From: Candidatus Pacearchaeota archaeon
GTDB lineage: Archaea; Nanobdellota; Nanobdellia; Pacearchaeales; GW2011-AR1
DNA length: 47,105 nt
NCBI GenBank assembly: GCA_016867035.1
Contig: VGKO01000002.1
Coordinates: 1 to 47,105 of the forward strand
Direction: 5' to 3'
This document shows positions 8,988 through 39,170 of this stretch, in pieces (the first letter of the stretch is position 1; the number at the start of each line of letters is the position of its first letter). Below the pieces are notes generated by a model. It was not told the DNA's origin, did not search any database, and was given only the letters and a program-made list of their open reading frames with translations. Position numbers and translations under genes: made by a program.

Positions 8988-9055
8988 TTTTCACCTCCTG
9001 AGAAATATCTGTTTTTTAAGTTTATAATATTTTCTAGATAAACGAAACAACACAA

Positions 9056-9069
9056 ATGGGCACAGGAGG
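9056..9069 (-). repeat. Echo of the tRNA-Val 3' end (14/14 identical to 9107-9120)
   Basis: atgggcacaggagg occurs twice with a 51-nt period. The second copy is preceded by a degenerate T-loop-like sequence (GGATTCACTCG on the minus strand). Confidence 0.9.
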
Positions 9070-9107
9070 CGAGTGAATCCATTTAACTAAATCACGCCCC
9101 TATCTAA

Positions 9108-9178
9108 TGGGCACAGGAGGAGTTGAACCTCCGAATACTCGGTGTAAACGAGTCAGTTTACCGCTAGCTTATGCGCCC
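9108..9178 (-). tRNA. tRNA-Val (anticodon UAC)
   Basis: Manual fold: acceptor GGGCGCA/TGTGCCC (one G-U), D arm AGCT-AGCGGTA-AACT (one C-A mismatch), anticodon stem ACTCG/CGAGT with loop TTTACAC, T arm GGAGG-TTCAACT-CCTCC, discriminator A, no encoded CCA. Confidence 0.85.
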
Positions 9179-9232
9179 GCATAAAATACATAAATTTTAA
9201 CATTTTATAAACATATCTAAAAGCTAGCGGTT

Positions 9233-9320
9233 GAGTCAGTTTACCGCTATGTACAACTTCTTCGAAAATAGTTAGAAGTTGGACAGACAGAAAATCATAT
9301 TTTCTGTAGCTTATGCGCCC
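9233..9320 (-). pseudogene. tRNA-Val 5' fragment (positions 1-30) interrupted by a 57-nt insertion in the D loop
   Basis: The minus strand reads GGGCGCATAAGCTA-[57 nt]-AGCGGTAAACTGACTC, identical to tRNA-Val positions 1-14 and 15-30, then diverges. No anticodon loop, T arm or 3' acceptor follows. Confidence 0.5.
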
Positions 9321-9384
9321 TTAAACATAAAAATACTTAGAAGGAAGAGTTTTTAAATCTTAAGTGTCAATTAAAACTAGCAGT

Positions 9385-9455
9385 GCGCTGCTAGTTTATC
9401 GGTAGAACACATCGTTGCCAACGATGAAAGCCGGGTTCAATTCCCGGGTGGCGCA
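9385..9455 (+). tRNA. tRNA-Gly (anticodon GCC)
   Basis: Manual fold: acceptor GCGCTGC/GTGGCGC (two G-U), D arm GTTT-ATCGGTA-GAAC, anticodon stem CATCG/CGATG with loop TTGCCAA, T arm CCGGG-TTCAATT-CCCGG, discriminator A. Confidence 0.9.
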
Positions 9456-9505
9456 TTTTTGAATGAACCGGGAATTGCCTGTAATTAAAATGTGGCGCCC
9501 GGGCA

Positions 9506-9516
9506 GGGTGGCGCAT
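9506..9516 (+). repeat. Echo of the tRNA-Gly 3' end (11/11 identical to 9446-9456)
   Basis: gggtggcgcat is repeated with a 60-nt period. The spacer contains CCGGG...CCCGG, a T-stem-like pair around a 25-nt loop. Confidence 0.9.
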
Positions 9517-9594: not shown

Positions 9595-10320
9595 ATGTCC
9601 AAACTTGAAGAGCATTTTAATAGAGCGAGAACACCCCAAGACTTACAAGAAGTTCTAACTTTAATTTGGGGCTCCAAGGTTGTTAAACAAGTAATTGGCA
9701 ATTCTAGAAGACATGCAGAGCATGAAGCAAGTTTTTTACAACTTCAAGCAACAATTACTGATCCTTTAGAGTATTTTGATGCTGTTAGAAATTTATTTGA
9801 AGCAAGAAAAAAAGAATACTTAGTGGGATTAAAGGATTATACAAGAATAAAACACGAGGAAAGAGGAATACCTTATGAGGCTATGGCCCTTGCAATAACC
9901 ACGGAGCAAGCCATAGATGACAAATGGTTGGAAATGAGAATTCATGGTTTATATTACCCGAAACCAAGAGAAAAAGATGCTTTTGAATTAGCAACAACTA
10001 CAGAAGAAAGAATAACAGAGTTAACCAAAGTCCTTGGAGAAAAACAAATACAGGTTCTACTTGAAAATGCTTTCGATATGGCTTGTAGCGTGTGTGAAAA
10101 GATAAAATCTGATTATAGTCCGGAGGAATATAAAAGATTAGTAATGGATTCTTGTGCAAAATTGCGAAGGAATATGGTAACTTGTGCTTACAGAGCAATT
10201 AGAAAAATTCAGTTTACAACAAAACTTCCCTGTGATAGGTTACCTGAATTGGGTTTAAGATTAGGAAAACTGGGCATAACCCAGGAAGGTAAACCTTTAG
10301 AAGAAAGAAGTTTAGAATAA
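9595..10320 (+). CDS. Hypothetical protein (241 aa, predicted helical)
   Basis: ATG ORF with tttatata box 21 nt upstream (leaderless spacing). No recognised domain. Confidence 0.55.
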   Translation: MSKLEEHFNRARTPQDLQEVLTLIWGSKVVKQVIGNSRRHAEHEASFLQLQATITDPLEYFDAVRNLFEARKKEYLVGLKDYTRIKHEERGIPYEAMALAITTEQAIDDKWLEMRIHGLYYPKPREKDAFELATTTEERITELTKVLGEKQIQVLLENAFDMACSVCEKIKSDYSPEEYKRLVMDSCAKLRRNMVTCAYRAIRKIQFTTKLPCDRLPELGLRLGKLGITQEGKPLEERSLE

Positions 10321-10401
10321 CTCGAGAACATAAATGCTTATAAATATAAAAATTTTCTTTAGAAAAGAAAGTTTCTATGCTTCAAAGAAACAATATAAAA
10401 C

Positions 10402-10794
10402 ATGACACGAGCATTAACTTATAGAGAACTTGCAAGAATAAGAGGTTTTATAGATTTAGAGGTTCCTGAATCAAGGAGGCTAGTAAGAGGAAAAATAAAT
10501 CTTCCTTTAGAAATTTTTTTTGATATGAATGGTCCCGAAGTTATTGCTTGGGCAAATCATGTTTCTGGTTCGAGTAATCCTAGAAATCCTATTGTTGGAT
10601 TGAGGGGTATTGTTATAAAAGAACCTACGCCACTAACAATTAAAATATCAAATTCGGGTTTGGTTTTTGATAAAGGAATTTATAAATTTGGCCCAGAGCT
10701 AACAGGAATAGCTTGCTCTTTTTATTATCCCGATATGGCTTCTTATGGGGCGCTTGCTAATAGATTAAAACAAGAGGAGTTTAATTTAGCCTAA
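10402..10794 (+). CDS. Hypothetical protein (130 aa)
   Basis: ATG ORF with no domain recognised. No canonical TATA spacing, so possibly co-transcribed with 9595..10320. Confidence 0.5.
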   Translation: MTRALTYRELARIRGFIDLEVPESRRLVRGKINLPLEIFFDMNGPEVIAWANHVSGSSNPRNPIVGLRGIVIKEPTPLTIKISNSGLVFDKGIYKFGPELTGIACSFYYPDMASYGALANRLKQEEFNLA

Positions 10795-10798
10795 TAAA

Positions 10799-11152
10799 AT
10801 GGAACTAGTTGCATTATTATCTACAGGCGAGGGAACATGGGCACAAGTAGCCGGTTTGATTAAGCAAGGCGAGTGGGATAAAATAATTCTTATTGGAAAT
10901 GATTTTGCACGTAAATTTCAAGTGCCTGAAATGATTAAATATGAATTCATTGAAATCAAGTCCTCAAGACTTGCTGAACTTAAAGAGGAGATTCAACAAA
11001 AACTTGCTGGAAAGATTAATGGTACAGAAGTTGCTTTAAGTATTGCAAGTGGCGATGGAAAAGAGCATATGGCTTTAATTTCAGCTTTACTAAGCTTGCC
11101 TGTTGGAGTTAGATTTACAGCTTTAACAAAAGACGGAATTGTTATGTTATAG
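10799..11152 (+). CDS. Small conserved-looking hypothetical protein (117 aa, alternating beta/alpha pattern)
   Basis: ATG 5 nt after the previous stop. LVALLSTGEGTW...KIILIGND...SGDGKEHMALISALL suggests a Rossmann-like fold. Function unknown. Confidence 0.55.
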   Translation: MELVALLSTGEGTWAQVAGLIKQGEWDKIILIGNDFARKFQVPEMIKYEFIEIKSSRLAELKEEIQQKLAGKINGTEVALSIASGDGKEHMALISALLSLPVGVRFTALTKDGIVML

Positions 11153-11716
11153 TTTTCCAGGGGTTTCTAAAGGATCTTCTACAAAAAAAGAATAATTTGT
11201 CCATGCATTTTCAAAATCAGCAAAGGCAGGAGTCTGTTTTGGATTAAATCCTATAAAAACCGGGCTAGTTCTCAAATATAATCTTTCATTTTCATTCCTT
11301 TCATAGATTCTATGTTTAAACATAACTGTTAGCGGAAAATCACTCTCTTGCATAGCTAGCATTAATCCACTTCGGGTTGTTAAATCTCTTACTATAGCTG
11401 GAGCAGAGAATATCCTTAATCCAGGATAGATGGCTCTAGCAAAACTTACTCCATGTCTTAAATTTTTAGAAGCTTGCGCATTCACAAGCAAAGCCTCTGG
11501 AGTTATTGAATCTTGAATTGGTTCTCCACCGAATCTAATTTGTTTTTCAGGTAAATAAAATAAAAAGCTAGAACCAGGAATGTGAAAAGAAGCAAACATT
11601 GTTTTTAATTGCTCTAAAACCTCGGGATGTCTTTCTAAATCACCAACACGATTAACTAATCTCTCACAAATACCTGGCAAGAATTCTGCAAGTTCAAAAG
11701 ATTTATCTTCAAGCAT
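11147..11716 (-). CDS. Hypothetical protein (189 aa)
   Basis: ATG ORF whose stop lies 1 nt from the thermosome start on the same strand. No recognised domain. Confidence 0.55.
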   Translation of the reverse strand: MLEDKSFELAEFLPGICERLVNRVGDLERHPEVLEQLKTMFASFHIPGSSFLFYLPEKQIRFGGEPIQDSITPEALLVNAQASKNLRHGVSFARAIYPGLRIFSAPAIVRDLTTRSGLMLAMQESDFPLTVMFKHRIYERNENERLYLRTSPVFIGFNPKQTPAFADFENAWTNYSFFVEDPLETPGKL

Positions 11717-29243: not shown

Positions 29244-29314
29244 GCTAATAAGAATAAATTTTTGTTTTTAAATCTTGATGTTTTGTTAAAAAAAATGATA
29301 GTTCGACTCGATAG

Positions 29315-29324
29315 ATGGGAGAGG
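29315..29324 (-). repeat. Echo of the tRNA-Phe 3' end (10/10 identical to 29369-29378)
   Basis: atgggagagg is repeated with a 54-nt period downstream of tRNA-Phe on its strand. Confidence 0.85.
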
Positions 29325-29369
29325 TCGAGGATTTTCATTTAAGTAAATAATATACTCTAGAAATGAAAA

Positions 29370-29441
29370 TGGGAGAGGGGAGAGTCGAACTCCCGACCCC
29401 TACGTCTTCAGCGTAGTGCTCTCCCGCTGAGCTACCCTCCC
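29370..29441 (-). tRNA. tRNA-Phe (anticodon GAA)
   Basis: Manual fold: acceptor GGGAGGG/CTCTCCC (one G-U), D arm GCTC-AGCGGGA-GAGC, anticodon stem CTACG/CGTAG with loop CTGAAGA, T arm GGGAG-TTCGACT-CTCCC, discriminator A. Confidence 0.9.
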
Positions 29442-38629: not shown

Positions 38630-38813
38630 TTAATTTATTTTCACCTAAACGTTCTCATATTTTTTCCATTAAATTTAATTAACTTCTAATTTAAATTTAT
38701 AGGTATAAAACAATTCAAAATAAAAGTTTATAAAATTTACAAAAACCAAGTATCAGACCTATATCTATTACCAATACAAAGCCGAGCAGCAGCGAGGCTA
38801 ATAAATAAAAAAA

Positions 38814-39170
38814 GAGTGGGAAATAAGCCGCCTTATGTCAAAGCTCCTTCACAAAGAAGGAATGTTTTGTGCTTACATTCGACTATAATAAAGGACGCTC
38901 TAATTTCTTATCGCGCTTTTATTATCCTAATTTTACTTAGGCGCCTGCATTTTGCAGTTGCATCAACCAGGATGTTCGTTCCACTCCCACTTAAGGGACT
39001 CGTCTCTATATCAGAGCCACGCCTCACGACGCTCGATTTTCATCGATGGTTTTTTACAATAATTCAAGTTATTGCTTGAATTAGATGGACGGACTTTCCT
39101 CAGAATTAGTATTGATATTTTCCAACACTTTCTCATTTAAGAGATAATCCCGGAGTAAGCTATCCCACTC
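38814..39170 (-). ncRNA. rnpB: RNase P RNA
   Basis: The minus strand contains the universal CR-I CTGAGGAAAGTCCGTCC (RC of ~39087-39103) and a CR-V-like GACATAAGGCGGCTTAT near the 3' end. P1 forms from GAGTGGGA (5', 39163-39170) and TCCCACTC (3', 38814-38821). A T7 run follows. GC well above the surroundings. Confidence 0.8.

Follow-up and report, generated by a model that had tools for sequence, protein, structure and literature searches.

Displaced Copies of tRNA Ends Beside tRNA Genes of a Pacearchaeota Genome: Possible Duplicated Targets of Small Non-Coding Insertion Cassettes

In a stretch of DNA from Candidatus Pacearchaeota archaeon (assembly GCA_016867035.1, contig VGKO01000002.1, positions 1 to 47,105), analysed here over its full 47,105 nt and called the window, the genes for tRNA-Val, tRNA-Gly and tRNA-Phe are each followed, after a short spacer, by an exact copy of their own 3' end. 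These displaced copies are termed echoes, and the spacers are termed cassettes. The explanation favoured here, with confidence that is roughly even, is that the echoes are duplicated target ends of small non-coding insertion cassettes landing in tRNA loops. Duplication, insertion/deletion polymorphism, modules shared between cassettes, arrays and a patchy distribution were all observed. Insertion events that duplicate the tRNA end are favoured because of the pairs of filled and empty sites, the strain alleles, the sharing of modules, the arrays, a fossil echo and the patchy distribution.

Under this explanation, hairpin-rich cassettes of about 35-165 nt would enter tRNA genes at their loops. 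Insertion at the T loop, or immediately beyond it, would add a second copy of the segment running from position ~57-62 to the discriminator plus 1-3 nt. Since this second copy would be made at insertion, the gene would remain intact and the displaced copy, the echo, would lie beyond the cassette. A mirror event at the D loop would leave the first 12-17 nt of the tRNA upstream. Insertions would recur, with new cassettes entering beside the gene and older ones being pushed outward. The cassettes are built from modules, namely a conserved left-end hairpin, variable hairpins (including a mobile two-hairpin element of 50-57 nt) and, usually, an antisense piece of the T or D arm that pairs with the echo. 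The mechanism would be staggered cutting, or a repair process that copies the target to the same effect, in the manner of casposons. The antisense piece may stem from snap-back repair synthesis or from later selection against mispairing of the echo with the tRNA. Because one family serves many tRNAs and each gene is intact, the duplicated piece would be copied from the target and not supplied by a fixed attP.

Genomes and Definitions

The window is contig C2 of the genome labelled G000, which comprises 751 kb on 80 contigs at about 33% G+C and originates from stratified lake water. It was compared mainly with G004 (a sister species of the same genus), G021 and G007 (other genera of the same family) and G034 (another family of the same order); genome sizes of the relatives range from 0.4 to 1.4 Mb, a span that suggests a DPANN-type lineage. 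A 3' echo was defined as at least 10 nt of a tRNA's own 3' end repeated no more than 200 nt downstream, and all 43 tRNAs of G000 were scanned. For the population comparison, DNA contigs of lake-water metagenomes were aligned to the window. The window itself carries an archaeal 16S-tRNA-Ala-23S operon and five tRNA genes (ARAGORN), and Rfam at its gathering score yields only rRNA and tRNA there.

Frequency and Distribution of Echoes

About a quarter of the G000 tRNAs (11 of 43, in trailers of 200 nt) are followed by a 3' echo, namely Val, Gly(GCC), Phe, Lys(UUU), Lys(CUU), Glu(UUC), Glu(CUC), Gln(CUG), Tyr, Asp and Leu(UAG). When a tRNA end was compared with the trailer of another tRNA, 6 of 1802 pairings gave a match, and the same test found none in the tRNA's own upstream region (0/43) or on the opposite strand (0/43). 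The original prediction, which had noted the three echoes of the window and held them very unlikely to be due to chance, is supported by this comparison. Its remark that tRNA-His and the tRNA-Ala of the rRNA spacer carry no echo is likewise correct, and the scan of other tRNA loci that it had proposed, in this genome and in relatives, finds echoes to be common. In G000, tRNA-Gln(CUG) has two successive echoes, and Gly(UCC) has one of 9 nt. Three G000 tRNAs, Val and Ser(UGA) on two contigs, possess a mirror-image 5' echo, in which the first 12-14 nt are repeated upstream.

The distribution among relatives is uneven. G004 has 3' echoes at 8 of its 37 tRNAs, together with degenerate ones after Arg(UCU) and Glu(UUC), and its set differs in part from that of G000, including Cys, Gly(CCC), Leu(CAA) with two identical units, and one intron-bearing tRNA. 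In G021, 3' echoes were found at 12 of 23 tRNAs and 5' echoes at 9 of 23, and arrays are present. No 3' echo was found among the 31 tRNAs of G007, which has a single 5' echo, and no echo of either kind among the 30 tRNAs of G034. Across 25 further genera, 2 of 27 tRNAs carry one. Within the genus of G000, tRNA-Gln(CUG) is followed by a cassette in all six species, although the make-up of the cassette differs. A genome-wide collection of 11-mer matches of tRNA pieces (719 matches) is dominated by chance and was therefore not used as evidence.

Loci of the Window

The features of the three loci are listed below by position in the window, strand and content.

9055-9069, minus: Val 3' echo, tRNA positions 61-73 plus TT; exact copy of 9106-9120 (15/15, spacing 51)
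9070-9105, minus: Val 3' cassette, 36 nt; not at the orthologous G004 site, where the flank follows directly after the tRNA
9108-9178, minus: tRNA-Val(UAC), intact (ARAGORN; Rfam 57.1 bits; 100% identity to the G004 gene)
9179-9220, minus: tRNA-Val promoter region, orthologous to the G004 promoter by alignment
9221-9232, minus: antisense copy of tRNA-Val positions 9-19 (11/11 inverted pair), pairing across the insertion site
9233-9249, minus: copy of tRNA-Val positions 13-29 (17/17)
9250-9306, minus: two-hairpin element, 57 nt, within the D loop of the partial 5' copy (hairpin B 9288-9306, hairpin A 9255-9280)
9307-9320, minus: Val 5' echo, tRNA-Val positions 1-14, exact (14/14)
9374-9383, plus: tRNA-Gly leader, antisense copy of tRNA positions 4-13 (perfect 10-nt complement of 9388-9397)
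9385-9455, plus: tRNA-Gly(GCC) (ARAGORN, Rfam)
9457-9505, plus: Gly 3' cassette, 49 nt (antisense T-arm piece 9468-9477; pairing partner of the echo 9490-9500)
9506-9516, plus: Gly 3' echo, copy of 9446-9456 (11/11, spacing 60)
29300-29309, minus: antisense of the tRNA-Phe T loop and T stem, beyond the echo (complements 29382-29391; kept in G004)
29315-29324, minus: Phe 3' echo, copy of 29369-29378 (10/10, spacing 54)
29325-29368, minus: Phe 3' cassette, 44 nt (10-bp hairpin, 29331-29340 with 29361-29370; kept in G004)
29370-29441, minus: tRNA-Phe(GAA) (ARAGORN, Rfam)

The Val echo is thus exact over 15 letters where 14 of 14 had been claimed, and the Gly and Phe echoes stand as first described. 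The three window trailers are short members of the family, with spacers of 36-49 nt and without the conserved left-end hairpin described below. The Val 3' cassette contains GGGGCGTGA (9092-9100), which resembles the 5' strand of the acceptor stem and could pair with the echo, as well as a degenerate T loop (9070-9080); the combined fold of cassette and echo has -14.5 kcal/mol (z = -1.64). Upstream of the gene, the Val 5' block consists, in order, of the 5' echo, the two-hairpin element, the copy of positions 13-29, the antisense copy, the promoter and the gene, and its folding reaches z = -4.23. G004 has neither the Val 5' block nor the Val echo, and the sequence that follows the echo in G000 directly adjoins the tRNA-Val of G004.

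The two-hairpin element of the Val block is 86% identical to an element at the same D-loop position in the relative G005. There, on contig C65 at about 1177-1265 of the minus strand, positions 1-38 of a tRNA-Val(UAC) with its own promoter carry the same two-hairpin element in the D loop. This 5' part ends at the canonical intron/split position 37/38, with no 3' half within 1.2 kb, and is either a pseudo-half or a split gene.

Metagenomic contigs reveal variation within the population at these loci. In one allele, 9179-9326 (the Val 5' block and promoter) is swapped for 12 other letters; the contig that joins 9178 to 9327, and thus lacks the Val 5' block, has a depth of 4.2 versus 10.2 in the probable source sample. 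A second lake sample displays the same loose end at the Val 5' block, on a contig that carries the Val 3' echo. Lake-sample contigs also branch 4 nt past tRNA-Gly. The Val and Gly echo regions are identical in contigs of independent lake samples and are therefore not an assembly artefact.

At the Gly locus, the perfect 10-nt complementarity between the leader and tRNA positions 4-13, also part of the original prediction, was confirmed, and the leader hairpin has z = -4.35. A comparable design occurs at tRNA-Gly(UCC) of G000, where the leader (C11:7716-7727) is a 12-nt antisense copy of tRNA positions 3-14. The antisense T-arm piece of the Gly cassette complements 9438-9447. What had been described as degenerate T-arm-like sequence in the spacers is partly an antisense copy of the T arm (Gly 9468-9477; for Phe, 29300-29309). 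The motif TTAAA(A)TG, said to lie 10-13 nt before each echo, does so at the three window echoes and at the Phe orthologue of G004; with 4 of 30 cassettes containing it overall, it is not a general feature.

Two further observations concern the surroundings of these loci. Four orphan open reading frames (ORFs) adjoin the tRNA-Gly echo at 9595-11716; Pfam gave no match for them at E <= 0.01, and they are not framed by the Gly or Val end, of which the window holds no additional copy. A candidate archaeal RNase P RNA lies at 38812-39130 on the minus strand, with a full-length model match of 58.5 bits against an Rfam cut-off of 84; the RNase P RNA scores in relatives exceed that of this candidate.

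Filled and Empty Sites, Arrays and Drift

Comparison of orthologous loci, which had been suggested as a check, finds that the presence of echoes differs between sister species and between strains. At tRNA-Lys(CUU), G000 exceeds G004 by exactly 96 nt, which corresponds to the cassette plus one 13-nt repeat, and beyond this block the flank and the next gene align between the two genomes. The 3' side of tRNA-Val presents the same situation, being filled in G000 and empty in G004. The Phe and Glu(CUC) cassettes are orthologous between the two species. Two contigs of G000, C8 and C47, carry filled and empty forms of the Arg-Cys locus, each with RNase Z, tRNA-Arg(UCU) and tRNA-Cys; as both carry RNase Z, they look like two haplotypes in one bin. 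The filled form holds an 857-bp insert (C8:3416-4287) with two orphan ORFs of 83 and 134 aa between a Cys(1-13) fragment and the intact tRNA-Cys; C47 and G004 have tRNA-Arg directly beside tRNA-Cys.

Whether the echoes track changes of the acceptor stem had been raised as a further check, and for the most part they do. The acceptor stem of tRNA-Lys(UUU) differs between G000 and G004, and each echo matches its own gene; similarly, the Gln(CUG) echoes of G001 and G003 follow their own tRNA. Two cases depart from this. The echo of tRNA-Glu(UUC) in G001 is a fossil, which retains the ancestral CAGGAGC where the tRNA end now reads CGGGGGC, and the tRNA-Gln echo of G002 has one mismatch.

Five 3' arrays were seen. 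In three of them, the outer echo is decayed and the inner one perfect: G000 Gln (17/17, then 12/14), G021 Thr (23/23, then 18/23) and G081 Ser. The 5' array that precedes tRNA-Leu(UAG) in G021 likewise has its decayed copy on the side away from the gene. A rule that the inner echo is always the younger was rejected, as it fits three of the five 3' arrays, whereas the two units of the G004 Leu(CAA) array are identical and the Gln array of G068 shows the reverse. Judged from these sequence comparisons, the echo pattern fits duplicates that would be made at insertion and would then drift with high turnover, while a sequence held identical by function would match it less well.

Cassette Anatomy

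The cassette inserts are 35-165 nt long and contain no ORF. The 3' echo ends throughout at the discriminator plus 1-3 T and starts mostly at position 61-65, or at 57-59. Repeat lengths are mostly 13-19 nt, with many repeats of 13-16 nt starting at 61/62 and others of 17-23 or 9-11 nt. Modules recur behind different tRNAs, following Lys, Gln, Leu, Ser and Thr genes. A 41-nt module is found after Lys(CUU), Gln(CUG) and Leu(UAG) at 92-93% identity, and the Lys(UUU) 3' cassette has a 23-nt hairpin in common, without a single difference, with the Ser(UGA) 5' block. Copies of the two-hairpin element (~50-57 nt) lie in the cassette of Lys(UUU) and in the 5' blocks of Ser(UGA) and Val, and one further copy is remote from any tRNA. 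Its hairpin B, CAGAAAAT...ATTTTCTG, occurs at eight places in G000, seven of them beside tRNA fragments. The orphan element (C14:2865-2962) lies inside a longer imperfect inverted repeat, between T/G-rich low-complexity direct repeats. A hairpin-B-like sequence beside an integrase gene on G001:C31 was set aside, since it is located between toxin-antitoxin-like genes and has no tRNA fragment.

Two arrangements can be distinguished. In the clean case, the tRNA is followed by an antisense copy of positions ~55-65, a sense copy of ~50-61, the two-hairpin element and the sense copy of 62-end. Since the antisense ~55-65 stands beside sense pieces ~50-61 and 62-end, it spans the insertion point, and the unit as a whole folds into a four-way junction. 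The second class opens with a left-end hairpin containing tandem G-A pairs, continues with an antisense strand that matches the echo imperfectly and with an AT hairpin, and closes with the echo itself. The 5' blocks follow the design of the 3' cassettes in reverse. Antisense T-arm pieces of at least 10 nt were found in 9 of 41 own trailers, compared with 42 of 1722 control pairings.

These antisense pieces bear on an explanation that requires no element at all, in which local replication or repair errors (template switching, snap-back, slippage at the T and D arms) or decayed tandem tRNAs produce the echoes; it is considered quite improbable. Sense and antisense arm copies, at the frequency just given, are a classic signature of snap-back and template switching, the T loop TTCGAA is itself palindromic, and searches found no transposase. 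The tRNA-Val of G001 has antisense and sense T-loop pieces and no echo. The Val trailer of the window resembles tRNA-Val minus its middle, with a 5' acceptor strand, a D-loop-like stretch, a degenerate T loop and the 3' end; decayed tandem copies, one of three options raised in the original prediction, may hold for this mini-tRNA-like trailer alone. Errors of this kind are hard to reconcile with conserved cassette ends, with near-identical modules behind unrelated tRNAs, with successive cassettes that differ within one array and with sharp boundaries that recur over ~40 cases. Moreover, G007 and G034 possess the same tRNA features and have none of these structures (for G007, no 3' echoes).

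The folding of the cassettes bears on a second alternative. In this case, they would be host-selected RNA modules of the pre-tRNA trailer or leader, co-transcribed and freed by RNase Z. The product would be a stable small RNA whose 3' part mimics the tRNA's own acceptor/T-stem strand and which acts as an aid to processing or termination, as a decoy or as a chaperone, with the echo maintained by selection or by gene conversion from the tRNA. This possibility is regarded as somewhat unlikely. It agrees with the better folding of the cassettes, with a mean z of -2.5 for 30 cassettes versus -0.8 for 72 echo-less trailers. It also agrees with several tRNAs that lack a T run after the gene and have one after the echo, with the 5'-strand-like segment of the Val trailer, which differs from the tRNA by transitions alone so that G-U pairing is kept, and with the presence of RNase P RNA and RNase Z in the genome. 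However, the sense strand folds better than the antisense strand in 20 of 30 cassettes compared with 42 of 72 controls, which is a weak lean to sense, and this comparison does not settle whether RNA or DNA is involved. T runs are similar after the tRNA, after the echo and after echo-less tRNAs (mean 2.6, 2.8 and 2.7), and on this ground the reading as a relocated terminator was rejected. The decayed outer echoes and the fossil echo, the variation in presence between sister species and strains, and the position of the 5' blocks upstream of the tRNA promoter also argue against selected RNA modules. In Rfam 15, 18 cassette-bearing loci searched at E <= 1 match only tRNA and 5S above noise.

The Left-End Hairpin as a Family Marker

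The left-end hairpin has the consensus stem-UUGARYRAARYGAAA-stem. In an alignment of 11 cassettes from three genomes, 97.7% of cells are paired, seven of eight pairs vary on both sides, and none of 500 shuffles equals this result; the members were selected partly by pairing, and the covariation test is therefore partly circular. With a strict pattern search, the hairpin is found behind tRNAs solely in genomes with echoes. A covariance model of the hairpin has matches in 13 of 61 genera sampled of the family. In G064, G024, G017, G081, G021 and G068, the match lies 0-7 nt past the tRNA 3' end or the echo, and a tRNA-end echo follows downstream in all of these except G064. In G042 (contig C6), a tandem-GA hairpin is located 4 nt upstream of the 5' end of tRNA-Lys(UUU) rather than past a 3' end.

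The covariation, within the limit just stated, and the fixed placement of the hairpin are points for the host-selected RNA modules. So are the Glu(CUC) cassettes of G000 and G004, whose stem sequences are wholly different and pair in both genomes, and the Gln(CUG) cassette kept in six of six species of the genus. G068 and G004 share one cassette class after tRNA-Gln(CUG), with the same A mismatches in the antisense strand; this imperfect-antisense class covaries with the tRNA acceptor. On the other side, 48 of the 61 sampled genera yielded no match to the hairpin, and since G007 and G034 moreover lack 3' echoes and all echoes, respectively, a core function is unlikely. The earlier option of a functional trailer retains some probability, given that the cassettes fold with the echo paired and that one module covaries strongly. 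With their strongly conserved structure, the left-end hairpin and one class of cassettes may likewise act at the RNA level.

A more specific proposal, thought unlikely, is that the echo is the working part of an expressed guide-RNA-like trailer RNA, which would consist of a hairpin scaffold, a 13-19-nt segment of the tRNA end and a T run. Such a cassette RNA would direct a protein to the tRNA gene, in a form of RNA-guided homing or retention, and one family could therefore serve any tRNA. Alternatively, the RNA may be a self-mimic that titrates or chaperones factors acting on the acceptor end of the tRNA.

Comparison with Known Systems

tRNA genes are classic landing sites of mobile DNA, and the known cases are large and carry an integrase or a casposase. 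Elements with a tyrosine integrase leave partial tRNA genes as attL and attR (Reiter 1989; Williams 2002; Islander; reviewed in PMC9897764). Such elements share with the cassettes an intact tRNA gene with a displaced end repeat, boundaries in loops, and differences in presence between strains and species. They differ in that known cases measure 9-23 kb or more, contain integrase and cargo, and involve one tRNA per element, whereas the cassettes are 35-165 nt long and gene-less, occur at a quarter to half of the tRNAs and at both ends, and have modules common to different tRNAs.

The possibility that the echoes are attR-type scars of tyrosine-integrase elements (viruses, plasmids or islands) later deleted down to their arms is considered very improbable. 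Direct repeats of tRNA ends are a hallmark of such integration (PMC9897764), the boundaries in the T, D and anticodon loops resemble crossover sites, integrase genes adjoin tRNAs in relatives (G003:C1 and G021:C3), and the C8 insert stands between a Cys(1-13) fragment and tRNA-Cys. Nevertheless, dozens of integrase specificities would be needed in genomes of 0.5-1 Mb (in G021, 12 of 23 tRNAs at the 3' side and 9 of 23 at the 5' side). The sizes cluster at 35-165 nt, with no gene fragments and no continuum to kilobases, and the same modules occur at many tRNAs, which a fixed attP could not achieve without breaking the target gene. The original option of att-site duplications is accordingly kept in the sense that an insertion-linked duplication fits best, and dropped in the sense of collapsed remnants of large integrase-borne elements, the inserts being whole, small and structured, with modules in common and ends that are conserved. 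Classical integration also takes place in this group, as the longer integrases beside tRNAs and certain tRNA halves of G001 imply. The latter are 5' halves of tRNA-Gly(GCC) and tRNA-Lys(CUU), which end at 37/38 about 100-130 nt upstream of the intact genes; for tRNA-Lys(CUU), the 13 nt preceding the gene are repeated as well.

By analogy, the nearest mechanistic model would be the casposon. Its target is read via the tRNA T-loop segment, a duplication of ~15 +/- 2 bp is produced, and arrays form in which the newest copy lies next to the tRNA (PMC5137440, PMC4779613). Arrays are present among the cassettes as well, and many of their repeats are of similar length (13-16 nt, starting at 61/62), with others of 17-23 or 9-11 nt. 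The cassettes differ from casposons in that no Cas1 was found in five genomes, in having no terminal inverted repeats, polymerase or other genes, and in a repeat that lies wholly inside the tRNA end and varies from 10 to 23 nt. Miniature inverted-repeat transposable elements (MITEs) and att-flanked cis-mobilizable elements (CIMEs; PMC5704250) are likewise small and gene-less, with conserved ends and direct repeats, and are presumably moved in trans; for the cassettes, neither a parent element nor an enzyme is known, and part of their interior, namely the arm pieces in antisense and sense, is a copy of the local target. In the literature searched, which included work on integrases, casposons and CIMEs, no description of such cassettes was found.

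Archaeal bulge-helix-bulge tRNA introns (PMC5829648 for the endonuclease types) at non-canonical sites, for which transposition has been proposed, share the D-loop and T-loop positions and the occurrence of related copies in different tRNAs. The two-hairpin element, in contrast, is found in partial copies, and the intact gene needs no splicing. As an intron of this type it was rejected, because no motif of two 3-nt bulges flanking a 4-bp helix could be drawn at the Val borders by inspection, with no dedicated search made. Very long tRNA introns do occur in some relatives, and that of tRNA-Gly(GCC) in G016 has ~200 nt with internal repeats. Short two-hairpin units without terminal inverted repeats are also represented by the double-hairpin elements of chytrid and Allomyces mitochondrial DNA and by palindrome-associated elements of the IS200/IS605 type. 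Neither of these is known to duplicate tRNA ends. The former belong to another domain of life, and the latter depend on TnpA, which was not found in G000 or G004; in addition, the left flanks of the two-hairpin element vary, unlike those of the IS200/IS605-derived element known as PATE (palindrome-associated transposable element), which inserts beside a short fixed motif without duplicating its target. A retro-copy of the tRNA was rejected as well, as no RVT_1 domain was detected in G000 or G021 and CCA follows none of the echoes.

Points Against the Insertion of Cassettes

Several results weigh against insertion as the source of the echoes, and the first group concerns the enzyme. No match to Cas1 (PF01867) was obtained in G000, G004, G021, G007 or G034, which are incomplete genomes. 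TnpA and TnpB of IS200/IS605 (PF01797, PF07282) were not found in G000 or G004, the DEDD transposase of IS110 (PF01548) was not found in five cassette-bearing genomes, and the reverse transcriptase search mentioned above was likewise negative. XerA-like recombinases alone remain, and they are found in cassette-free genomes as well; the number of tyrosine recombinases does not track the presence of cassettes, and the PF00589 matches of G000 are located on contigs C15 and C27, not between repeats.

The second group concerns structure. Repeat length is variable, and no terminal inverted repeats were recognised when cassette ends were compared by eye. The antisense piece and the partial T-arm copy of many cassettes match the local tRNA, which is unexpected for a simple mobile unit, and the two-hairpin element within the outer tRNA copy is accompanied by no separate duplication. 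Alignment with the orthologous promoter of G004 marks the promoter of the intact tRNA-Val gene as ancestral, and the Val 5' block was therefore added upstream of it rather than at the gene boundary. In the Gln array of G068, the mismatch is in the inner echo, not in the outer one. Finally, the strong covariation of the left-end hairpin is what would be expected for a selected RNA, and in the Gln(CUG) class of two genera the antisense and the echo change in step with the tRNA acceptor.

Implications

A selfish origin of the cassettes and later use by the host are compatible and do not exclude each other. Gene-less cassettes of 35-165 nt are found at as many as half of a genome's tRNA genes, on either side of the gene, and the genomes concerned are very small. 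Mobility of the cassettes would point to an enzyme, encoded by host or virus, with the ability to recognise tRNA loops and to copy the end of the target; mobile cassettes would also generate tRNA gene fragments, rearrange tRNA loci and lead to mistakes in tRNA annotation. As selected RNAs, they would constitute a novel type of small RNA that is linked to a tRNA and mimics it. The left-end hairpin provides a handle to detect the cassettes in other genomes.

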